From the sequence record OR885871: a stretch of DNA of 64,000 nt. The stretch is one strand, 5' to 3'. This document shows, piece after piece, positions 2,158 through 19,873 of the stretch. The notes under the pieces are model-generated. The model did no database searches, was not told the DNA's origin, and worked only from the letters and a program-made list of their open reading frames with translations. The position numbers were made by a program, and so were the translations under genes. Source of the DNA: Escherichia phage vB_EcoM_JN03. How positions within the stretch are numbered: the stretch's first letter is position 1; every line of letters begins with the position of its first letter.

Positions 2158-2422
2158 AATTCAGATTGCTTGTGATATCGCTGTCGAGTTATGGAATCAG
2201 CGAAACAAACATTATCAGGTGACGTTGACCCCAAAGCGTTATCTAGAGCAAGGTGGCTTAATAGTCGTTGATGCCGTGTTAGGTTTCAACAAATATACTG
2301 ACATGCAAATCTTGGACGGGGATTTCACTATTGCTTCCAATACAGCTTGGGATGATCCTATGGAATTTGTCTACGGTTGGTTGGAATGCATAGAGGAATC
2401 ATACCATCTGATCTACGAATAA
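2138..2422 (+). CDS. hypothetical protein
   Basis: ATG-initiated ORF followed by hairpin terminator. Confidence 0.4.
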   Translation: MSEEKDEIQIACDIAVELWNQRNKHYQVTLTPKRYLEQGGLIVVDAVLGFNKYTDMQILDGDFTIASNTAWDDPMEFVYGWLECIEESYHLIYE

Positions 2423-2427
2423 GGTGA

Positions 2428-2460
2428 AGGGCACTAAATATCACGTGCCCTTTATCTTTT
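2428..2460 (+). terminator. rho-independent terminator
   Basis: Stem AGGGCAC/GTGCCCT followed by TTTATCTTTT. Confidence 0.55.
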
Positions 2461-2519
2461 AACCCTGTCAGGAGGCTCCAGCGAGCTGCAAGTCGACAAA
2501 CCACATAAGGAACGCCATC

Positions 2520-3134
2520 ATGACGATGACAACGTTGAAGGCCATGGCCTTGTCCGTGACCTTTACCATTGCCAGCGGGAATGTGCACGCTTCCCAAAAT
2601 ACAAGTCAATGTGTTTATGATTTCTCTGAGCAACAACTTAATACGCTGGCAACTGCCTATCACATAGGCAAGACGCAAGACCTTGGTTATACTCTGGCCG
2701 CCATATCTTGGCGAGAGAGCCGCGCTGGTGAAGATGTAGTGTCAATGCGATACGGTCTCAAGGCGGCCAACATGGGAGCCTTTCAGAACAAGGTGAAGAC
2801 AGTTGGTGATCGCGAGGGTTGTAAGAATCGCAAGTGCTATGCCAATGTCGCCATCAAGTTGTTGACCGACCAAGAATATGCCGCGCAAGCCGCCCTCGAT
2901 GAGATGCAGTTCTGGCTGACCTATCACAAGCAGAATGTACGCAAGTCTCTTTCCTCTTACAATGCTGGCTTCGCCCGTAATCCCGCATCGAACGCCTATG
3001 CCGCCGACGTCGTGAAGAAAGCTAAATATCTTCAGAAATGTGTGTCCTTCAAAGGGCGTTCCATCTCTGAGGTGGATCCTCAGGTGATCGCCATGAACAA
3101 GCGCACGATAGAGAAACTGAAGAGGACAAGATAA
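2520..3134 (+). CDS. secreted lytic transglycosylase-like protein (SLT domain)
   Basis: N-terminal signal-peptide-like segment; WRESRAG, GAFQ and SYNAG resemble SLT motifs ES / GLMQ / AYNAG. Confidence 0.45.
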   Translation: MTMTTLKAMALSVTFTIASGNVHASQNTSQCVYDFSEQQLNTLATAYHIGKTQDLGYTLAAISWRESRAGEDVVSMRYGLKAANMGAFQNKVKTVGDREGCKNRKCYANVAIKLLTDQEYAAQAALDEMQFWLTYHKQNVRKSLSSYNAGFARNPASNAYAADVVKKAKYLQKCVSFKGRSISEVDPQVIAMNKRTIEKLKRTR

Positions 3135-3772
3135 TGAACATCACTCCATCCCAGACCGGATATGAACATATCTTGGTCTTCATTGCCCTACAGGGTGCGA
3201 AGGAAGGCATCATCGTATCCGAGTATTCAGGTACGGTTCGCCTTGCTGACTACGTCGCGCCGGAGGCATTCATTAAGAAGTGCATTGATGCATGGTGCCT
3301 CTATGCCCTCGGCACGTATCCTGCTCCTCCTGATGGCGAGCTGTTGTTTACCGTACCGACTCCGGCTGCTGGCGATACAGACGCGATCTTTGCCGATATG
3401 CTGGCCAAGGGGTATCTGGTGTATGACATAACTCACGATGTCTATTCCTTCACCTCCCTGAACACTGTGTTTGGGTTCACCATAACCTCTGAAGCCAACA
3501 TCCCTGACTGGGGTATCTTGGCCTGGGGTGTTGACGGCCTGGGCGCAACCTACGCAACGTCTGATGTTGGTCCTGTTCTGATTGATGAGGGTGTAACCAT
3601 GGAGCAGTACCTTGCTCAGTTCCCCCAACACAACATCACGGGTAGCGATATCATTTTGGTCCAGCCTGGCGCTGTTGCCCTCCCCCGCCTCGTGGACGGA
3701 TGGAAGCCTCAGCTGAAGGACATCATTGCAGGGATCAGGTCCCATATTCCTGTGGTGAACCCAACACCGTAA
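3134..3772 (+). CDS. hypothetical protein
   Basis: TAATG coupling to upstream gene; no recognisable motif. Confidence 0.45.
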   Translation: MNITPSQTGYEHILVFIALQGAKEGIIVSEYSGTVRLADYVAPEAFIKKCIDAWCLYALGTYPAPPDGELLFTVPTPAAGDTDAIFADMLAKGYLVYDITHDVYSFTSLNTVFGFTITSEANIPDWGILAWGVDGLGATYATSDVGPVLIDEGVTMEQYLAQFPQHNITGSDIILVQPGAVALPRLVDGWKPQLKDIIAGIRSHIPVVNPTP

Positions 3773-3786
3773 AATAATTCAATAAA

Positions 3787-3806
3787 AGGGGCTTTCGCCC
3801 CTTTAC
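3787..3806 (+). terminator. rho-independent terminator
   Basis: GGGGC-TTTC-GCCCC hairpin then T-run. Confidence 0.55.
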
Positions 3807-3878
3807 TTCTTCAATATCCTTCCCTATACTTCATTCCATAAGCAGTACGACACCAACTTGAAACGAAGGAACTATATT

Positions 3879-4238
3879 ATGGCTATCACCACAAAAACTG
3901 AATTGAACGCGATCCTGAAAGAAGCTGGCTTCGGTAGTATCAAACGCCAGGGCAAGGTTTTACGCGATGGCGGTAAAATCGTAAAGGGTATCATGTTGGG
4001 AAGTACTGGCCCGTTGAGCATCAGCTCCCCTCAGTATGACAATCTTCGTAAACTGGCGCGTGAACTTCTCCAAGAAGACCTCCATATCACGACGCAAGAA
4101 ACCAATTATGTGGTTTTGGAATGCAACAAATTCATCGTCAGCCTTTACATCTGCAGCACCCGCTCATATCCGGTGTCTGAAGGTTATGACCCAATGTATC
4201 TGACCCATTATGCTCAGGTTACTGTCAAAGTAAAATAA
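3879..4238 (+). CDS. hypothetical protein (N-terminus MAITTKTEL)
   Basis: RBS AAGGA 9 nt upstream of ATG 3879; ORF-track start 3858 is TTG. Confidence 0.5.
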   Translation: MAITTKTELNAILKEAGFGSIKRQGKVLRDGGKIVKGIMLGSTGPLSISSPQYDNLRKLARELLQEDLHITTQETNYVVLECNKFIVSLYICSTRSYPVSEGYDPMYLTHYAQVTVKVK

Positions 4239-4322
4239 TCAAATTCAACGGGGGGCTTCGGCTCCTCTTTTGTTTTCGCTAATTAAGGAAAACCGCACCG
4301 ATTTATTATCAGGAGAATTACA

Positions 4323-6710
4323 ATGGCCATCCCATCTTTCTTGAACTTTCTTGAAGAGTCTAAACAATTAGACGAAGCGTTTAACTCATCCCCGTATGAA
4401 TTGACATTCGGCAAGAAGAACGCTGGTGACATTTTCTTCACATTTGTTGATGAAGACGAAAAAGAATTCCGTATTCAATTCTATACCCCACAAGGTCTAG
4501 GCAAGAATGTTCGCCAAGTCTTTATCGGTCAGAAGCGTGGTTCCACATATCCCGATGCCATCGGTCGTTTCAAGAATCCAATGCGTGTTATCGCATCCAT
4601 GATTGAAGCAACAAAGCAATTCATGGCGACGCCTTTGGGGAAAACCATTGACGGCTTTGCAATTAACTTCTCCAAGAAAGCATTGGAGCGTGGTGTTACC
4701 CTCCTGCCGAAGATTATCCGTCAGTCCGGCCTGAAGCAAAAGCTCAATGTCATGGACCTGACGTATACCCCTATCCCTGATCGTGCATTCGTATGGGTTG
4801 TGCGTAAAGGCAAGGATCCTGCTCAGGTATTCGATGGTCCGAAAATGAAAGGTGTCACATGGGATGATCCGGACAAAGTCGGTGACGTCCCGGTTCAGAA
4901 CAATACTCCGGATGTGGGAGTTGTGGCTGGTTCTTCTGAAATCGAAGTCAACCGCGATGACAACGGTTGGAAACTCACCAAAGCTAGTCGTACTCAGCCT
5001 ATGCTGGTCTGGTCTGGTAAAGAACGTGGGCGGACTATTACCGCCAATATCGCACCTCACGCGGATATACCTGGGGTGTATGCTGGTAGTATCATGAACG
5101 AGAAACGGATCCGCGCTCAATCTCCAGACGCTATTGTACGCCAACTGGGATTACCGCAGATCCCTGTGAATATTCTGAATGATTTCACCAAGCAGTCGTC
5201 CATCTTCTGGAAAGAGATGACGGGGGATTCTGGAAAAATAGACATGCAGAATTTGCCAAAAACAGGATCTGTGGATGACTTACGAAATCAGGGTTATATT
5301 GCTCGCCTTCTGGGGATTGTAGACACATATGCTCCACAACAGGTCGGTATGTATGCAGGTGAAAAACTAACACGAATCGGCGCGGGCAAATATCGTACTT
5401 CGGGTGGTCTGGACATTCAGGTTTATTTCTGGGGAATTGTCAACGGAAAACTTTCTGTAGAAGTAGTATCAGATTTGTCTGGTCATGACCAACTTATGCT
5501 GGAAGGAGATGTGAAAAACGCCGCTTATGAAATAGTGGGCGCAATCTCCCGTGCAGCCGATTCTCAATTTGCTGGAGAAGTAGAATGCCGTGTGGTTCCG
5601 ATCAATGGTGCCCCATATCCGATTCAAAAAATTTCCCGTTCTCAGGGATATTCTTACGTTGATTGTGGTTCTTTCACATTGAAGATCGCTGACGCTCTGC
5701 TGAATCGGTTTACCTTGGGCAAGGCGGTCAAACTTGATCTGATGAAAGAGTTTCCTCGTACAACATTCAAAGTCCGCTATGATTGGCGTGGAAAAGATAC
5801 TCTGTTGGTTCAATCTTCCGACGAGCGTACTATCTTTGGTGAAATCAACACCAATTCCAGTGAAAATGCAGTGATCACTGCAAACATCAAAGTGCCAAGC
5901 AATGCTAAATTTTTTGGTGAAACCGTTCATGGCTTCTCTGTAGCGTGGGATTTCCAGTTCCCTGCTGGTAGCAAGTTGCAAGCCGCAAGATTCGTTACCA
6001 ACGTAACTTACGATTTTGATCGAAACAAAGCCAACATCACCACCATGTTGGCTGAAAATGGTCGAAATGTAGTAGACAGCAATGGATATGATATTTCGTT
6101 GTCTGTCAAATCAGTGCAAGATGCATTGGATGAGATTTCTCGACGCCTGAAAGACGCGGCTTCGCAACTGAGCCACCTCAGTTCATCAAACTATAACCCT
6201 AACAATCTATTCCTGAATGACATCACTGTCAGTAAATTTGGCGCAATTATGTTCCAAGACAAAGATTTGGCACAGTCCAGGAACCGCACGGCAGTCATTG
6301 ATGCTCTGGCTCGGGCTAAAGATCAGGCTGCTGGAGGTAAGAATGCAGGTGATCTGGCCACCTATGCCGAATCCATTCGTGACAGCGCTCCTAATGGACG
6401 AGATCTGGATTGGCAGGTATACACAGCCAGTAATGGTACAGTTCTGAATGTTGCTTGGGATATCACTTTCCGTCGCAATACGACCGAAGGAGCATATCGT
6501 GAATTCAAGGATCAGATCAACCGTGCCAACCAATACCTGCAAACGGTATACAACGACGCGAAATCTAAAGGCTATAATCCTACCGTGCCAAATCTCATGA
6601 CTCTTGAACGCGCTCGCCAATCCGACGAATGGGCTATGAGTAATGGCGATAGTGCATACAGTGAATATGAACAATCGCTGGGCGGTAATCTTCAGATTAG
6701 TCTGAAATAA
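4323..6710 (+). CDS. large hypothetical protein (795 aa)
   Basis: Long ORF with RBS AGGAGA; no catalytic motif recognised. Confidence 0.55.
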   Translation: MAIPSFLNFLEESKQLDEAFNSSPYELTFGKKNAGDIFFTFVDEDEKEFRIQFYTPQGLGKNVRQVFIGQKRGSTYPDAIGRFKNPMRVIASMIEATKQFMATPLGKTIDGFAINFSKKALERGVTLLPKIIRQSGLKQKLNVMDLTYTPIPDRAFVWVVRKGKDPAQVFDGPKMKGVTWDDPDKVGDVPVQNNTPDVGVVAGSSEIEVNRDDNGWKLTKASRTQPMLVWSGKERGRTITANIAPHADIPGVYAGSIMNEKRIRAQSPDAIVRQLGLPQIPVNILNDFTKQSSIFWKEMTGDSGKIDMQNLPKTGSVDDLRNQGYIARLLGIVDTYAPQQVGMYAGEKLTRIGAGKYRTSGGLDIQVYFWGIVNGKLSVEVVSDLSGHDQLMLEGDVKNAAYEIVGAISRAADSQFAGEVECRVVPINGAPYPIQKISRSQGYSYVDCGSFTLKIADALLNRFTLGKAVKLDLMKEFPRTTFKVRYDWRGKDTLLVQSSDERTIFGEINTNSSENAVITANIKVPSNAKFFGETVHGFSVAWDFQFPAGSKLQAARFVTNVTYDFDRNKANITTMLAENGRNVVDSNGYDISLSVKSVQDALDEISRRLKDAASQLSHLSSSNYNPNNLFLNDITVSKFGAIMFQDKDLAQSRNRTAVIDALARAKDQAAGGKNAGDLATYAESIRDSAPNGRDLDWQVYTASNGTVLNVAWDITFRRNTTEGAYREFKDQINRANQYLQTVYNDAKSKGYNPTVPNLMTLERARQSDEWAMSNGDSAYSEYEQSLGGNLQISLK

Positions 6711-6761
6711 GTCATAGCCCCTTCGGGGGCTAAATACATCAAAATCCTTAGGAGATCCACG

Positions 6762-7307
6762 ATGAAACCGTTTATCGAATATTTTAAAGAACAAGCTCAA
6801 CAACCGCAAACACATGGCGGCATACAAGGCAAAAGTGTAACCATCACCAAACAGGCCGACGGAACCCAATGGTGTACTGGTGCCACCGTAACCCAGATCA
6901 CTCCAGATAATCAGGCCGACATCTATAATCTGGAATTGACTAATGGCAACACCATCAAAGTGAAGCTAACTCCAGACCAGACCCACGGCATTACCCAAGG
7001 CCAAGAAGTCGTTGCCGTCCATGATGGGTTTGAATTCTTCTTCGGCAAGTCGGCTGACAAAGGTCAGGTTACTGAAACGGAAGGCTGGCGTTTCGTCGGT
7101 GACCGTGGCGCTCATATTCTGATGTATGACGCAAAAGTTGGCGGTGCCTCCACTATCCTTCGCAGTCCAACAGATCGAACCAAATTTGTTGGTGGTCTCA
7201 TCAACGGCAGAAAAATTTTGGGTAATTCCCCAGAAGAACTGGCGGCAAAATTAGGTCTTCCAAAAATTCCTGATAATTTATTAAAATCATTTTTTGGTAA
7301 AAAGTGA
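6762..7307 (+). CDS. hypothetical protein, C-terminal motif shared with upstream 795-aa protein
   Basis: RBS GGAGA; C-terminus SPEELAAKLGLPKIPDNLLKSF. Confidence 0.5.
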   Translation: MKPFIEYFKEQAQQPQTHGGIQGKSVTITKQADGTQWCTGATVTQITPDNQADIYNLELTNGNTIKVKLTPDQTHGITQGQEVVAVHDGFEFFFGKSADKGQVTETEGWRFVGDRGAHILMYDAKVGGASTILRSPTDRTKFVGGLINGRKILGNSPEELAAKLGLPKIPDNLLKSFFGKK

Positions 7308-7321
7308 TTACAAAATACAAT

Positions 7322-7349
7322 CCCCCTAAATACAGGGGGATTTTCTTTT
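7322..7349 (+). terminator. rho-independent terminator
   Basis: CCCCCT-loop-AGGGGG then ATTTTCTTTT. Confidence 0.6.
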
Positions 7350-7362
7350 AGGGGTAAATATC

Positions 7363-7716
7363 ATGGTCAATGCGAGTATATTCATCAACCGTGGACTGCT
7401 TGCTATAGCCCACTCTCATGCCCTCCACTTCGTTACAACGTCCTATGCCAAGCACAAGGCGCTCGGGGAGTTCTACGGGGAACTGGAGGACTTGCTGGAC
7501 ACCTTTACGGAAGCGTATATTGGTGCGGGAGGTATATACATTCCAGGATTCGAGAACATCAAATTGTACAATCCTGAACCGATATCGTATATCAACAGCG
7601 TGGTCATCGACGTTAATGGGATCTACAATCAGTGTGATAGTCATCTTCAAAATACGCTTGACGAAATCAAGACTCTGTGCTATCAAACGATTTACAAACT
7701 GAAGCAATTGTCTTAA
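7363..7716 (+). CDS. hypothetical protein
   Basis: ATG ORF after terminator; preferred over antisense ORF 7348-7707. Confidence 0.4.
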   Translation: MVNASIFINRGLLAIAHSHALHFVTTSYAKHKALGEFYGELEDLLDTFTEAYIGAGGIYIPGFENIKLYNPEPISYINSVVIDVNGIYNQCDSHLQNTLDEIKTLCYQTIYKLKQLS

Positions 7717-7779
7717 CTCAATAGAACATCCTTCAGGTTATAATTTTGCCCATTCGTCATCAATAGGATACAGATAACA

Positions 7780-8397
7780 ATGGGCAAAATATTCATACCT
7801 TCGCATTCAGAAGGTTGTCAAATCGCTGCAAAATTTCTACACAAACAAATGAATTGTGGTGCTGTGTTCGTAGAACCAAATTCATTCGATAATCGTGAAT
7901 CCCCTGACGCCATCGGGTTCAGACCTGGGGGTTGTTCTATATTAATGGAAGTTAAAGTCTCCCGCGCCGACTTCCTGACAGACAAAAAGAAACCTCATCG
8001 CATGAATCCTTCCATAGGCATGGGAGCATATCGTTTCTATGTTTGCCCAGCAGATGTTATTAAAATTGAAGACCTCCCTCCCAAATGGGGTTTGTTGTAC
8101 TTCACCCCTAGAAAATCTTTGAAGCCCGTTCACGTTCCGAATATGCAATATTCCTCTTTGTCTTCACCGGAACATTATGCATCATATTTGTCTAAATCTT
8201 TGGGCAAAAGAAGACATACAGATATCCCTCCTTATCTATTAGGGTACAAACAGATGCTGGAAGAATTCGCCCACTTTGAACGCAATCAGGTTGCGGAACA
8301 AAATATTCTGTATGGGGCTTGGCGACAGCTTTGCATAGCTCAAAGTCGCGGGGTGGATTATAATGTGACAGAAGTGTTCCAGAGGCCAAATATCTAA
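7780..8397 (+). CDS. PD-(D/E)xK-type nuclease-like protein
   Basis: Motif PDAIGF...ILMEVK (PD-x12-EVK); stop overlaps primase start. Confidence 0.4.
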   Translation: MGKIFIPSHSEGCQIAAKFLHKQMNCGAVFVEPNSFDNRESPDAIGFRPGGCSILMEVKVSRADFLTDKKKPHRMNPSIGMGAYRFYVCPADVIKIEDLPPKWGLLYFTPRKSLKPVHVPNMQYSSLSSPEHYASYLSKSLGKRRHTDIPPYLLGYKQMLEEFAHFERNQVAEQNILYGAWRQLCIAQSRGVDYNVTEVFQRPNI

Positions 8398-9461
8398 TGA
8401 AATTCTTGGACGAACAATACATCAATTTTCTCGCCCCCCGACTTGATAAATTCAGTTGGGAACGTGTTGGCGCTGTCGCCAAATTTCGTTGCCCATTATG
8501 TGGGGATTCTAAGAAGAGTGCCAACAAGCGTCGTGGTCACTTCTTTTATGATCGTGATGACGATGTGTTTCGTTTCAAGTGCCACAACTGTAATGAAATG
8601 AGCGGTTGGGCGTTTGAATTCTGGTTGAAGAAGTTTGACGAGCGTCTGTATAATGAATACAACCTTGAAAAATTCAGGATCATGGGGGATACCAGTTCCC
8701 GCCCGTTACAAAAACTCAAACCACTACAGCGCCTGACCCAGACAGCACGTATCGGTTCTCAGGTCGCCAAACGGGATGAAGAGCACCTTGGGAATATGAT
8801 ACGCCTTGATCTTCTTGACCGTGATCATATCGCCCGTCGTTATGTTGAAGGCAGGGGTATGCCGGAGAGCACGTTATCTTTGTTGTATTACAGCAGGAAT
8901 TTTCGTCAAGATCTTCTGAGTTTCGAAACGGATGTTGAGAAGCAGAAGAAGATACCCGAAGATGAGCGGCTGGTAATCCCATTCTGGACCCAAGACGGGC
9001 GCATGAAGATAGTTCAGGGGCGCGCATTCGGCGATAACCTTCCTGATGGGGTATTACGGTATGCCACTGTCAAGCCTAAGAACGAAGATACTAAGATCTA
9101 CGGGGAAGAGCGCATCATTTGGAACAAAACAAAGTTGGTAGTAGAAGGTCCAATTGATAGCTTGTTTCTACCCAATTGTCTTGCGACTGCCGATGCCGAC
9201 TTATTAAGTGCTAAGGGAGACATCTATATCCCCGATAACCAATACAGGAACAAACAAGTTTGTGACGGTATACAGAAGATGATAGACAGCGGAGTCAAAG
9301 TCGTTCTGTTTCCACCGGAAATACCGTGGAAGGATATCAATGATATGGTTCACCCCGATAAGGGAAATATCCCGATACGTGATCTGCTTCAGATCATAGC
9401 CAAGAACGTATATCAGGGACTGTCGGCGTCCTTACGATTTTCTGACTTGAGGAAGATATGA
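8397..9461 (+). CDS. DNA primase (T4 gp61-like)
   Basis: Zinc ribbon CPLCGDS...CHNCN and Toprim-like VVEGPIDSLF. Confidence 0.7.
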   Translation: MKFLDEQYINFLAPRLDKFSWERVGAVAKFRCPLCGDSKKSANKRRGHFFYDRDDDVFRFKCHNCNEMSGWAFEFWLKKFDERLYNEYNLEKFRIMGDTSSRPLQKLKPLQRLTQTARIGSQVAKRDEEHLGNMIRLDLLDRDHIARRYVEGRGMPESTLSLLYYSRNFRQDLLSFETDVEKQKKIPEDERLVIPFWTQDGRMKIVQGRAFGDNLPDGVLRYATVKPKNEDTKIYGEERIIWNKTKLVVEGPIDSLFLPNCLATADADLLSAKGDIYIPDNQYRNKQVCDGIQKMIDSGVKVVLFPPEIPWKDINDMVHPDKGNIPIRDLLQIIAKNVYQGLSASLRFSDLRKI

Positions 9462-9667
9462 TGGATTTGAAAGAACTGAATAGTATGGACGATGAAGAGA
9501 TTCTTCGCGGGTATATGCAAGCCCGTGAAGGATATGTCCTATCTGGCTTAGAATCTAAGAGTTTCATCCATGGTTGGAGGAATGGAATGGTGGACTTCGG
9601 CGGTTGTCCTATCACTGAAGAACAAATGGATTTGGCTCGCCAGTATTTGAAAAAGAAGCCGACCTAA
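9458..9667 (+). CDS. hypothetical protein
   Basis: ATGA-coupled to primase. Confidence 0.4.
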   Translation: MMDLKELNSMDDEEILRGYMQAREGYVLSGLESKSFIHGWRNGMVDFGGCPITEEQMDLARQYLKKKPT

Positions 9668-9695
9668 AACTTTTTAACTCAAAAACCTTCTCTCT

Positions 9696-9720
9696 AGGCC
9701 TCATTCTACGAGGCCTTTTA
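9696..9720 (+). terminator. rho-independent terminator
   Basis: AGGCCTC-loop-GAGGCCT then TTTTA. Confidence 0.6.
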
Positions 9721-9866
9721 AAATACTTCAAAAATAATTTAAAAATTTATTGAAAAAGACTTTACTCTTCAATAATCATGCACTATTATAGTTCACATAG
9801 GGCGGTACACAACACCCCGCCGAATGAAAAGTGAAACGACCCAACTACATTATGAGGAATTACATC

Positions 9867-10355
9867 ATGGCTACTACCAAAACTCTGATCACCAACGGCA
9901 CCATCTCTTTTGAACTGAACACCGAAGTTGCAAAAGTTGAAATGTTCCGCATCGCTCAGGCAGCTGGCTTCACTGGTGGCAAAACTTCCTTCATGAATCT
10001 GCTGAACGGCAAAGTGAAAGCGACCAACGGCTTCACCCTGGTAGAGCAGGTTGTCGTAGACAAAGCCGTGGTTGCCAAGACTGCTGACAAGGTTGGCATG
10101 CTGAAAGACCTGGGCCATGACATCCACGTTGTCGAAGCGAACACCGAAACTTACGGCACCATCGTAGTCGGTAAAGGTCGCATTCAGCTGAACCCGCTGA
10201 ACAACGGAACCTTCTCCGTGATGGTATTCCCGAAAAAGGGTTATGACAACAGCGATATCGTGAAAGCCGCTGGCGGTGAAGCGAAATCCCAGTATGTCAA
10301 AATGGGTAAACTGAGCGCCGACGCAGTAGAAACTCTGGTGAACAAACTGGCTTAA
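9867..10355 (+). CDS. hypothetical protein (N-terminus MATTKTL), likely abundant
   Basis: RBS GAGGA 7 nt upstream of ATG 9867; preceded by partial duplicate of its initiation region; ORF-track start 9831 is GTG. Confidence 0.5.
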   Translation: MATTKTLITNGTISFELNTEVAKVEMFRIAQAAGFTGGKTSFMNLLNGKVKATNGFTLVEQVVVDKAVVAKTADKVGMLKDLGHDIHVVEANTETYGTIVVGKGRIQLNPLNNGTFSVMVFPKKGYDNSDIVKAAGGEAKSQYVKMGKLSADAVETLVNKLA

Positions 10356-10361
10356 CCGCAA

Positions 10362-10385
10362 GGGGGAAACCTCCCCCTTTCAAAG
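10362..10385 (+). terminator. rho-independent terminator
   Basis: GGGGGA-AACC-TCCCCC then T-run. Confidence 0.6.
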
Positions 10386-10405
10386 TTTTGGTAGGAGAAT
10401 GAGAC

Positions 10406-10594
10406 ATGAGTAGAGCAATTATCCAAGCCTCTCCTGGCGCTCTATGGGTTGCCGACCGAATTCCCAACGCGCACTTTCCTCAGTTCCAAGAGGAACTGGA
10501 ACAAGCGATGTTGAAAATATTTGAAAAATATGGGTATGATTCCGAAGTTAGGACTTCCTTCAAAGAAATCATGCCTATCGTCGTAGTCAGATAA
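10406..10594 (+). CDS. hypothetical protein
   Basis: RBS AGGAG upstream of ATG. Confidence 0.35.
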   Translation: MSRAIIQASPGALWVADRIPNAHFPQFQEELEQAMLKIFEKYGYDSEVRTSFKEIMPIVVVR

Positions 10595-10663
10595 TCGACA
10601 CTAAATCCTCAAGTTCGACTTTCACTTTAAATACCTTCGCATACATTGCGGAGGTATTTTCTT

Positions 10664-11458
10664 ATGGCCATTCTAAAACTTGGCAACCGAGGTTCTGAAG
10701 TCAAAGCACTTCAACAAAGCCTCAACAAAATCGGTTTCTCCCTTACAGCCGATGGCATATTTGGTAAGGCAACAGAGAATGCTGTCAAATCCGTTCAGGC
10801 AGGTGCTGGATTGGTTATTGATGGTATTGCTGGGCCAAAGACCTTCTATGCTATCCGCAACGCTGGAGACGCTCATCAGGAACATCTGACCGAAGCGGAC
10901 TTGGTTGACGCAGCACGTGAACTTGGTGTTGAGCTGGCCAGTATGAAAGCTGTGAATCAGGTAGAATCCCGTGGCACAGGTTTTACCAAAACTGGCAAGA
11001 TCAAAACTCTGTTTGAGCGCCACATCATGTACAAAAAGGTGACGGCCAAATTCGGGCAAGCAAGAGCCAATGCTCTGTACCAACTCTACCCAACATTGGT
11101 TAACCCCAATTCTGGCGGGTATATCGGCGGAGACGCGGAGTTGGAACGCCTTCAGGGTGCAATCGCCCTTGACGAGGACTGCGCTTACGAGAGTGCTTCC
11201 TACGGCCTATTCCAGATCATGGGGTTCAACTGCCAAATCTGTGGCTATTCAAATGCCAAAGAGATGTTCACTGATTTCCTGACTGGTGAACGCGCTCATC
11301 TTCTGGCATTTGTGAAATTCATCAAAGCTGACGCCAATATGTGGAAAGCCCTGAAGAATAAGAATTGGGCCGAGTTTGCTCGTCGGTACAATGGTCCGGC
11401 ATATGCGAAAAACCAGTATGATACTAAACTGGCGGCAGCATACAAGAGTTTCTGCTAA
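10664..11458 (+). CDS. endolysin: peptidoglycan-binding domain plus muramidase-like (DUF3380-type) domain
   Basis: N-terminal LKLGNRGSEVKALQ...DGIFG...TENAVKSVQ; C-terminal ESRGTGF / YGLFQIMG; RBS GGAGG before ATG 10664. Confidence 0.7.
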   Translation: MAILKLGNRGSEVKALQQSLNKIGFSLTADGIFGKATENAVKSVQAGAGLVIDGIAGPKTFYAIRNAGDAHQEHLTEADLVDAARELGVELASMKAVNQVESRGTGFTKTGKIKTLFERHIMYKKVTAKFGQARANALYQLYPTLVNPNSGGYIGGDAELERLQGAIALDEDCAYESASYGLFQIMGFNCQICGYSNAKEMFTDFLTGERAHLLAFVKFIKADANMWKALKNKNWAEFARRYNGPAYAKNQYDTKLAAAYKSFC

Positions 11459-18247: not shown

Positions 18248-19873
18248 TCATGCGCCTTTACCACCAAAATTGCCGCCGTTATCCTCTAACTCCGGTTTTA
18301 TATCAATTGGACCTGGGCCTGTAGTTGTTACAGGAGTTGCCCCCGCACGTGAGGCGGCGCGGCCAGCGCCTTCAGCATATTTGATGTTGCCTTCAATAGT
18401 CTGCGCAACCGATAATTTATCGCAAATTATTTCAGTTGCCAGTATCTTAGGAACCTTCAAAGTGTTAGACACTTCAAACATTTCACAGATGAGACGCAAC
18501 ACGTTCTGTGCCTGTATCTCAGCCAATTGGGAAAATTTCATCAACGCCGTGCCAGCGACCACATTGGAGTAGTTAGAAGAGTGCAAGTGGTAAACTTCTC
18601 CTGTCTTACGCTGTACTTCAGTCCCGCCGATAGTCAGGTTATGATCGCGCCCCACATAATAACGTTTGTCAAACATCGTCAGATCATAATGATCTTTGAC
18701 TGATTTATTGACCACGTCCCCGTCAGGAAGCATCTGCTTATAAGACCCCGAGGAGTGCATCCAATGGAGACGTTCCCCGCCTGGAGTGTCATCGACCTCC
18801 ATAATATGCCCAGCTCGAGAAGCCATAACATTGTTGTATGGATAACGAGACCCTCCAGCCGAAGGAACCGATACCTCTCCTGTGTTGTCAATATCCTGAA
18901 CACGACCAGAAGGAGGCGGTGTTTCTTGGACTTTCGGGGTACGATCTGGAATAGGTTCAGACCATTTACCGTTTTGTTGTGCCGGAGCTGCTGAAGCTGT
19001 AGTTTCTGGACCTGGCCAACGATAACCCAACACGGATGAGCGGCTAAAACGGCTCACCTTCACCGAATCGGATTGGTTTCCCCCGATACACCAAACGTAG
19101 TTGGCGTCAAATTTCTGAACGAATGCAACGTGACCGAATGTCGGGTTGTTCCCGCGCCGGAACACTACAACAGCGCCGTAACGTGGTTCTGACAGAGGAG
19201 ATCCCCATTGTAGATATGAGCGAGCCAAAGCAGAACGTGTTGATGTATATCCGGCCTGTATCAGAACCCATCCAACAAACGACGCACACCAACTAACTTC
19301 ATCTTCTGAAGCCCCCAGGGAAGTTGTCTTATGATATTCCAATATCCTTGGGTTGTTATTGAACTTACCAGAATATTCTTTGACGCCCAATTCCCCACGA
19401 GCCACGGTCATCCACTTCTCAGGATCATATCCGCCTACTGGTGGTTGTGGATCCGGTTGCGGTTCATCCTCAATCTTAACAGGAACATTCTCGACGGCAT
19501 TATACTTCTGCCTTTCTATAGATTGAACGACCTGACCCAGCGCCAATGGGTTTGTATCTGACCCATCTGTTGGTGTTGCTGCTGGCCATACCCATGCAAT
19601 ACGGATGTTCTGATATGCTTCATCCAAAGCAAACCCCATGACGTCAGAGCCGACAGTGATACCCGTCGGAGACCAGCCTAAACCTGCCGAGGAGGCGTTA
19701 GATGCTGGCATAAGCATTTTACCCCAAGGCAATAATTCTGTAGGCAGGAGAGTGGTATCCTCCGTGTGTACCCCATAGATGCGTACTGCGACGCGCCCGT
19801 TTTGATCGGGATCATTCACGTCTTCAACGCGCCCGTAAAACCAACGCAAGTTGTCTAACATATTGAAACCCAT
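18248..19873 (-). CDS. baseplate hub/central spike protein with CHAP peptidoglycan hydrolase domain (gp5-like)
   Basis: N-terminal gp5-like OB-fold region; central CHAP-type Cys (WCASFVGW) and His (GHVAFV). Confidence 0.55.
   Translation of the reverse strand: MGFNMLDNLRWFYGRVEDVNDPDQNGRVAVRIYGVHTEDTTLLPTELLPWGKMLMPASNASSAGLGWSPTGITVGSDVMGFALDEAYQNIRIAWVWPAATPTDGSDTNPLALGQVVQSIERQKYNAVENVPVKIEDEPQPDPQPPVGGYDPEKWMTVARGELGVKEYSGKFNNNPRILEYHKTTSLGASEDEVSWCASFVGWVLIQAGYTSTRSALARSYLQWGSPLSEPRYGAVVVFRRGNNPTFGHVAFVQKFDANYVWCIGGNQSDSVKVSRFSRSSVLGYRWPGPETTASAAPAQQNGKWSEPIPDRTPKVQETPPPSGRVQDIDNTGEVSVPSAGGSRYPYNNVMASRAGHIMEVDDTPGGERLHWMHSSGSYKQMLPDGDVVNKSVKDHYDLTMFDKRYYVGRDHNLTIGGTEVQRKTGEVYHLHSSNYSNVVAGTALMKFSQLAEIQAQNVLRLICEMFEVSNTLKVPKILATEIICDKLSVAQTIEGNIKYAEGAGRAASRAGATPVTTTGPGPIDIKPELEDNGGNFGGKGA

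Follow-up and report, generated by a model that had tools for sequence, protein, structure and literature searches.

A marginal similarity of the bacteriophage T4 protein Vs.1 to the SLT domain was published in 2006, with reference to earlier PSI-BLAST results (PMC1524935), and this comparative-genomics note was all that our searches of the literature on vs.1 function returned. It is known that Vs.1 is made during T4 infection, with an early RNA and a middle protein (PMC9697503 supplement). The PHROGs database labels the corresponding family, phrog_600, as 'unknown function', NCBIfam has no model for T4 Vs.1 or for the protein described here, and a literature search on phage transglycosylases with signal peptides gave nothing directly relevant. 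Over 2000 sequenced phage genomes encode Vs.1-type proteins. A biological question is why large virulent myoviruses would export a holin-independent wall enzyme besides an endolysin and a tail lysin. In T7 gp16, the phiKZ gp144/gp181-type proteins and the tape-measure or internal-core SLT proteins, the SLT domain lies within large structural proteins which have no signal peptide and act at entry. Bacterial family 1 lytic transglycosylases (PF01464, CAZy GH23) include Slt70/Slt, MltC, MltD, MltE and MltF, and the specialised lytic transglycosylases of secretion systems include EtgA, of the enteropathogenic Escherichia coli (EPEC) type III secretion system, as well as IpgF, IagB, VirB1 and P19. 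Goose-type lysozyme and the GH23 chitinase of Ralstonia A-471 are hydrolases with extra acidic residues.

The protein described here (hereafter the SLT-like protein) is, by homology, the Ackermannviridae counterpart of T4 Vs.1. The two are homologous over the whole mature domain, have about 180-200 aa and a signal peptide at the N-terminus, as judged from sequence, and are encoded by autonomous genes unlinked to the endolysin gene in virulent myoviruses of Gram-negative hosts. They differ in that the SLT-like protein has four cysteines and T4 Vs.1 none, and in that the protein here has a basic C-terminal extension of 30 residues and its gene a late-promoter-like motif. Identity to EtgA is ~18%, and unlike for EtgA, no secretion-system partner is encoded near the SLT-like gene. 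Identity to the bacterial family 1 enzymes is 13-17%, and the superhelical, LysM and lipoprotein-anchor modules of these enzymes are missing. In contrast to the virion-borne SLT domains, the SLT-like protein is small and free-standing and has a predicted export signal. The protein, its family and its SLT similarity are already in the databases and the literature, 'SLT domain-containing protein' being used for orthologues in some records and in UniProt, and the idea is not new. The present analysis adds a firm fold-level confirmation, a correction of the RegB label and a proteomic discrepancy, and describes no new kind of system.

The sequence analysed (the window) is a 64,000-nt stretch of Escherichia phage vB_EcoM_JN03 (record OR885871). 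The matches of its first 8 kb are Kuttervirus (Ackermannviridae) genomes, the closest being that of Salmonella phage SPTD1 (97% identity, 97% of query). The SLT-like gene (2520-3134, plus strand) has an ATG start and encodes a 204-aa precursor of 22.7 kDa and pI 9.65, the ORF listing returning the same reading frame as had been given in a preliminary description of this DNA. A Shine-Dalgarno sequence, AAGGA (2507-2511, plus strand), lies 8 nt 5' of the ATG and is unchanged in five Ackermannviridae genomes. The surrounding gene order is common to SPTD1, Vi01, Sajous1, AG3 and LIMEstone1: the gp47 and gp46 recombination nuclease genes and three small ORFs precede the SLT-like gene, which is followed by a DUF7270 gene, a small ORF, the gene of a 795-aa protein, three further small genes and the primase gene. 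ORF122 of SPTD1 is 100% identical to the SLT-like protein. At E<=1e-40, 282 phage records contain the protein, and tblastn gave 2104 records at E<=1e-5. Compared to the Vi01 and Sajous1 orthologues, the dN/dS of the SLT-like gene was 0.05-0.065, with synonymous sites close to saturation. The ORF is a real gene under purifying selection and not a chance reading frame.

The 97-nt leader of the SLT-like gene is 95% identical in five genomes from three genera. It contains a terminator-like hairpin of 14 bp with a T-rich tail behind it (2421-2458, plus strand), which comes immediately after the stop codon of the preceding gene (2138-2422). The hairpin has a folding energy of -20.4 kcal/mol (z -6.2), none of 200 shuffled sequences folded as well, and it is nearly invariant in Vi01, Sajous1, AG3 and LIMEstone1; our terminator scan missed it because its loop is 10 nt. 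It is plausible that the hairpin and the T-rich tail act as the terminator of the upstream gene. The hairpin loop holds CTAAATA (2434-2440, plus strand), a motif like the Ackermannviridae late promoter, ~80 nt 5' of the start codon. The motif cited for Ackermannviridae is CTAAATAcCcc (PMC7283392), and the SPTD1 record has a 'Kuttervirus late gene promoter(4)' at this site, with coordinates 6 nt off the motif. CTAAATA is not enriched in the window (7 copies, 6.9 expected by chance), and six of the seven copies are situated 31-112 nt 5' of an ORF start on the same strand. A scan for sigma-70 promoters around the SLT-like gene gave no hits above those in shuffled sequence. The placement of the motifs and the SPTD1 annotation make late expression plausible, and transcription of the SLT-like gene probably starts at this late-type promoter, whose function we infer from the motif. 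T4 vs.1 is an early/middle gene, whereas the SLT-like gene has a late-promoter-like motif, and the timing of expression may thus differ between the lineages. With such a difference in expression class, the role of the protein may also differ in the two phages.

The relationship with T4 Vs.1 (NP_049725, UniProt P13311) was seen both in BLASTP (31% identity over 165 aa, E 3e-18) and in a match to PHROG 600 (E 1e-58), in which protein residues 7-179 aligned with profile positions 4-176 of 178. The WxES, GxFQ and SYNxG motifs and a conserved Tyr are aligned between the two proteins. When T4 RegB, Vs, RI and RI.-1 were compared directly with the SLT-like protein, no similarity was found. The relatives in the 2104 records are chiefly from T4-like, Felix O1-like and other large myoviruses of Gram-negative hosts, and the tblastn match in Acinetobacter phage Acj61 is a gene named vs.1. 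An exhaustive search of a protein library clustered at 50% identity gave 824 cluster representatives at E<=0.001, mostly 160-200 aa in size. Among the library members sampled, one was on a 210-kb phage-like contig and another was found amid Nitrospirota housekeeping genes, indicating that the Vs.1 family includes cellular members too. In nine family members of greater length (269-435 aa), a scan for fused informative domains found none.

According to the preliminary description the protein resembles family 1 lytic transglycosylases, and a profile search against SLT was suggested as a check. The outcome of this search was divided, as the score of the SLT-like protein itself with Pfam SLT PF01464 (E 3.7e-4, 20.5 bits) was 0.8 bit short of the gathering cutoff of 21.3, whereas 43 of 68 aligned relatives matched SLT at E<=0.01 (best E 4.8e-10); several relatives carry a precomputed PF01464 match. 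A profile built from the alignment of these 68 sequences matched EtgA in the PDB (E 2.6e-5), followed by goose-type lysozyme and MltD, while a search of PDB sequences with the single SLT-like sequence gave no match, and EtgA was reached with the family profile alone. The AlphaFold model of the SLT-like protein (pLDDT 91.2, pTM 0.83) has the lysozyme-like alpha+beta fold of the SLT catalytic domain, and Foldseek searches of the PDB and BFVD with this predicted model returned mostly GH23 enzymes and phage SLT proteins, and one vs.1 protein. The predicted mature protein (residues 25-204, 20.25 kDa; 2592-3131, plus strand), as drawn from the model, the fold searches and the alignment, would consist of a GH23/SLT catalytic domain at about residues 31-175 and of the basic extension at residues 176-204, which is present in Ackermannviridae-type relatives. 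The profile, the family-wide conservation and the predicted fold agree, and membership of the SLT-like protein in the SLT/GH23 lysozyme-like family is well supported by them, as is the resemblance first proposed. The preliminary description would have given up its proposal if neither an SLT match nor a signal peptide were seen; a family-level SLT match and, as described below, signal-peptide anatomy were both seen.

The ES, GAFQ and SYNAG motifs that had been pointed out earlier were found as described, and by sequence comparison all four motifs of family 1 lytic transglycosylases are present and conserved. In the family alignment (n=247 relatives) the predicted catalytic Glu66 of motif I (E66-S67; 2715-2720, plus strand), which is at the C-terminal end of the helix formed by residues 56-67, was found in 247/247 sequences and Ser67 in 238/247. 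When the family profile was aligned with PDB sequences, Glu66 fell on the ES of AWNES in EtgA and of SRES in goose-type lysozyme. Motif II, the equivalent of GLMQ, is G86-A-F-Q89 (2775-2786, plus strand); Gly86 is present in 239/247 relatives, position 88 is aromatic, and position 89 has Q in 107 relatives and H in 122. Motif III, the equivalent of AYNAG, is S146-Y-N-A-G150 (2955-2969, plus strand), with Tyr147 in all 247 relatives, Asn148 in 228 and Gly150 in 246. The conserved Tyr of motif IV is Tyr160 (2997-2999, plus strand; 246/247 relatives), which in the profile alignment corresponded to the Tyr in both EtgA and goose-type lysozyme. Gln39 is absent from only one sequence of the alignment.

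It is possible, though unlikely in our estimate, that the SLT fold of the protein does not serve lytic transglycosylation, the protein being instead a hydrolase similar to goose-type lysozyme or to chitinase, or a non-catalytic periplasmic protein which binds peptidoglycan or has a regulatory function, for example in superinfection or lysis-inhibition signalling. The top Foldseek match in the PDB was a GH23 chitinase, and goose-type lysozyme had scores equal to those of transglycosylases. The searchable literature shows no assay of any member of the Vs.1 family. The second acid of EtgA, D60, is two residues before the motif-II Gly, and an Asp is found at this position in 43/247 relatives. However, in the SLT-like protein the residue is Asn84 and in most relatives it is Ser, leaving a single catalytic acid as in transglycosylases, which makes a single-acid transglycosylase a better fit to the sequence than a lysozyme. 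That Glu66 is absolutely conserved likewise points to catalysis and not just to binding, and the presence of all four family 1 motifs also speaks for a lytic transglycosylase.

The N-terminus of the SLT-like protein, which had been noted to be like a signal peptide, is built like a cleavable Sec signal peptide, as judged from rule-based features (residues 1-24; 2520-2591, plus strand). Its sequence, MTMTTLK-AMALSVTFTIA-SGNVHA/SQ (the slash marks the predicted cleavage site), has a charge at K7 and an 11-residue hydrophobic core, A8-A18, followed by a c-region with Gly at -5, V22-H-A24 at -3/-1 and then S25. The features of a type I signal peptide, as assessed by rules only, are thus all there: charge in the n-region, a core within 7-15 residues, small residues at -3 and -1, and no lipobox. 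Neither a lipobox (L-x-x-C) nor a second hydrophobic segment was found in the protein. The core is short and moderately hydrophobic, with a maximum Kyte-Doolittle 9-residue mean of 1.87, and the AlphaFold pLDDT is 52-61 for residues 1-30 and >=92 in the remaining blocks. The predicted mature N-terminus, from Ser25, is SQNTSQCVYDFSEQQ. A hydrophobic segment at the N-terminus was found in 218/251 relatives, and the N-terminus of T4 Vs.1, MRKALLAGLLAISMMAHS/SEH, is a typical signal peptide. Of the four cysteines of the SLT-like protein, Cys31 and Cys174 occur together in 127/247 relatives, compared to ~86 expected if they were independent, a figure inflated by relatedness; their co-occurrence suggests a disulfide. 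The signal anatomy and its conservation, the basic mature domain and the Cys pair are taken as support for the predicted export.

We consider it likely that the SLT-like protein is a Sec-exported, signal-peptidase-processed periplasmic GH23 enzyme of ~20 kDa, which cuts glycan strands with Glu66 and has an accessory, holin-independent function in loosening the wall. The 204-aa precursor would be synthesised in the infected cell, probably from the late-type CTAAATA promoter, exported by Sec and cut by signal peptidase I after Ala24. Once in the periplasm, the basic mature domain would fold and probably form a Cys31-Cys174 disulfide, and the single catalytic acid, Glu66 of the ES motif, would cut MurNAc-beta-1,4-GlcNAc bonds of the host sacculus. 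The most likely chemistry is that of a lytic transglycosylase, with 1,6-anhydroMurNAc as the product. As its own signal sequence would bring the SLT-like protein to the wall, it would be independent of the holin that a cytoplasmic endolysin needs. During infection the enzyme would most probably serve to make the sacculus looser or to remodel it from outside, being accessory to lysis or to cell enlargement and not the main lysin.

The canonical endolysin of the phage is encoded at 10664-11458 (plus strand). As had been proposed, it combines a peptidoglycan-binding and a muramidase domain (PG_binding_1, E 2.9e-16; Muramidase PF11860, E 3.8e-58); it has no signal sequence, and no holin is evident beside its gene. 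The CHAP domain that had been ascribed to the baseplate hub was likewise found, in a gp5-like protein (18248-19873, minus strand) with Gp5_OB and CHAP matches (CHAP E 3.4e-10, 40.7 bits, cutoff 26). The SLT-like gene is distinct from both of these genes, in agreement with the preliminary description, and the three lie within 17.4 kb, inside the 20 kb that had been suggested for three wall-active domains. T4 has genes of the same three kinds, e, gp5 and vs.1, and three wall-active genes are the norm for such phages and not an oddity.

A proteome study of Sajous1 reported 31 spectra of gp211, under the name 'RegB', in CsCl-purified virions. Sajous1 gp211 is the syntenic orthologue of the SLT-like protein and 82% identical to it, and the spectra are at odds with a purely periplasmic protein unless it was co-purified. 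They would be explained if the SLT-like protein was a virion-associated muralytic protein, packaged in or attached to the particle along with proteins from the downstream late genes and aiding the tail in crossing the wall at entry, its hydrophobic N-terminus serving assembly and not export. The late-promoter-like motif is in line with this, and the gene heads a block whose products were found in virions in several studies, namely the DUF7270, 795-aa, 181-aa and 117-aa proteins. However, the syntenic orthologue in LIMEstone1, ORF086, is absent from the 39 virion proteins confirmed by MS in that phage, while the list includes the adjacent ORF085 (DUF7270) as well as ORFs 078, 080, 081 and 082. 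ORF086 has a 99%-identical copy in Limestonevirus phages such as PP35 and JA15. Similarly, in the Vi01 record the orthologue Vi01_097c is 'hypothetical', whereas Vi01_096c, Vi01_094c and Vi01_093c are each a 'phage associated protein'. Sajous1 lists gp211 and not gp212, the reverse of LIMEstone1 and Vi01, which makes a labelling slip or co-purifying wall or vesicle debris possible. The orthologue of the SLT-like protein is not mentioned in the proteome papers on phiD3 and PD10.3/PD23.1, and Vs.1 is not a known component of the T4 virion. The conserved anatomy of a cleavable signal and the co-varying Cys pair also suit a periplasmic protein. Taken together, we regard a function in the virion as improbable, and virion association as less likely than export combined with co-purification or a labelling slip.

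Further ideas start from the preferred reading of an exported periplasmic enzyme. Lysis inhibition has been reported for CBA120 (PMC3184105), and the SLT-like protein could be, instead of a redundant lysin, a dedicated periplasmic infection factor which is needed to enlarge or loosen the sacculus during prolonged, lysis-inhibited infections; or, released at lysis, it could be carried bound to phage particles. The unusually conserved leader hairpin might also gate its expression. We hold these ideas to be quite unlikely. If binding to particles after lysis were true, the Sajous1 spectra would be explained, and the virion would gain a second, non-covalently carried wall enzyme. If the idea on the leader were true, the hairpin with the late-promoter motif in its loop would be a regulatory element gating expression of the SLT-like gene.

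It is very unlikely that the SLT-like protein is a second endolysin of the SAR type, in which the weakly hydrophobic N-terminus would hold the enzyme, still inactive, at the inner membrane until depolarisation at lysis released and activated it. Like SAR domains, the core is moderately hydrophobic and has many Ala, Ser, Thr and Gly residues (7/13), a late promoter motif is located upstream and the canonical endolysin has no evident holin next to it. However, the uncharged core of 11-13 residues is too short to span a membrane, compared to the uncleaved, weakly hydrophobic transmembrane domain of ~18-20 residues in SAR proteins; the maximum Kyte-Doolittle 19-residue mean was 1.12, and the core is followed by a canonical V-H-A/S signal peptidase site. 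These features do not fit a SAR domain. Furthermore, T4 Vs.1 carries a normal signal peptide and is produced at early/middle times, well ahead of lysis, and a conventional endolysin is encoded by the phage in any case.

In many records, among them those of Maynard, Coodle, PP35, JA15, LIMEstone1 and Marshall, the orthologues are labelled 'RegB', 'endoribonuclease' or 'site-specific RNA endonuclease', and a RegB-type site-specific endoribonuclease, for which these database names are the sole support, is refuted as the identity of the SLT-like protein by BLASTP with T4 RegB (E 0.82 over 50 residues, compared to 3e-18 for Vs.1), by a Pfam scan in which the RegB family is absent at E<=10, with the PDB sequence search also empty, and by the lysozyme-like fold, a signal peptide being in addition incompatible with a cytoplasmic RNase. 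The T4 regB gene adjoins vs.1, which is the probable seed of the mislabelling. Correcting the annotation would be useful for the curation of phage-therapy genomes, as Kuttervirus phages find wide application against Salmonella and E. coli O157. A link to T4 rI.-1 through 'starvation-inducible transcriptional regulator' labels was also rejected, since these labels concern another ORF of the window, 7363-7716, with DUF5856.

The region comprising the 5' leader and the coding sequence of the SLT-like gene (2520-3134, plus strand) is, judged from sequence identities, a mosaic (2400-3134). Over the leader and the part coding for the signal peptide (2400-2600) the identity with phage Vi01 is 96-97 %, whereas the remainder of the gene (2600-3134) has only 68-78 % identity with Vi01, compared to 93-98 % with the Agtrevirus AG3. 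At the protein level, the gene product is 99 % identical to that of Limestonevirus phages. Given such contrasting identities, the gene body appears to have been swapped among genera of the Ackermannviridae by a crossover located within the conserved 5' portion.

Conservation is higher in the leader than in the gene which follows it. The leader contains a very stable hairpin (2421-2458, plus strand), conserved across genera, the loop of which carries the late-promoter motif CTAAATA (2434-2440), so that a promoter motif and a terminator-like structure overlap at this site. The hairpin with its CTAAATA motif may be a regulatory element.

The family of Vs.1-type SLT proteins, to which the product belongs, extends beyond phages. 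A branch of the family with a 224-aa protein is encoded on a Nitrospirota metagenome contig (L010, 1943-2617), where the neighbouring genes encode an MscS channel, an aminotransferase, an epimerase and an MFS transporter, i.e. an ordinary bacterial chromosomal context, and the family is thus not restricted to phages. In T4, vs.1 is adjoined by vs (4387-4734 of the T4 sequence L003), which is annotated as 'valyl-tRNA synthetase modifier'. The N-terminus of T4 Vs resembles a signal peptide (MTKILVLCIGLISFSASASA, followed by DTS) and the protein has several cysteines, features which, as read from the sequence, would be odd for a modifier of a cytoplasmic synthetase.

Products of the genes immediately 3' of the SLT-like gene (3134-8397) are present in purified virions of related phages, although no structural function is assigned to them. 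The proteins detected are the DUF7270 protein (212 aa) and proteins of 795, 181 and 117 aa. The 795-aa protein was fifth in abundance in the MS analysis of Sajous1, and its gene has been annotated as at least two ORFs in LIMEstone1 and AG3. The 117-aa DUF5856 protein is encoded at 7363-7716 and has the RefSeq name 'starvation-inducible transcriptional regulator', a label also borne by T4 rI.-1. Its orthologues LIMEstone1 ORF078 and Sajous1 gp217 are virion proteins by MS, and the label is probably wrong for the 7363-7716 product.

Directly upstream of the endolysin gene (10664-11458, plus strand), no membrane-protein ORF was evident as a holin or spanin candidate (9461-10664). The lysis-control genes of vB_EcoM_JN03 must be located elsewhere than in this interval; the CBA120 study likewise reports the lack of an identified holin (PMC3184105). 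Just 3' of the gp46-like gene, 1825-2157 encodes a DUF4326 protein (E 3.2e-24), the counterpart ORF of which in AG3 is annotated as similar to T4 NrdA.1.
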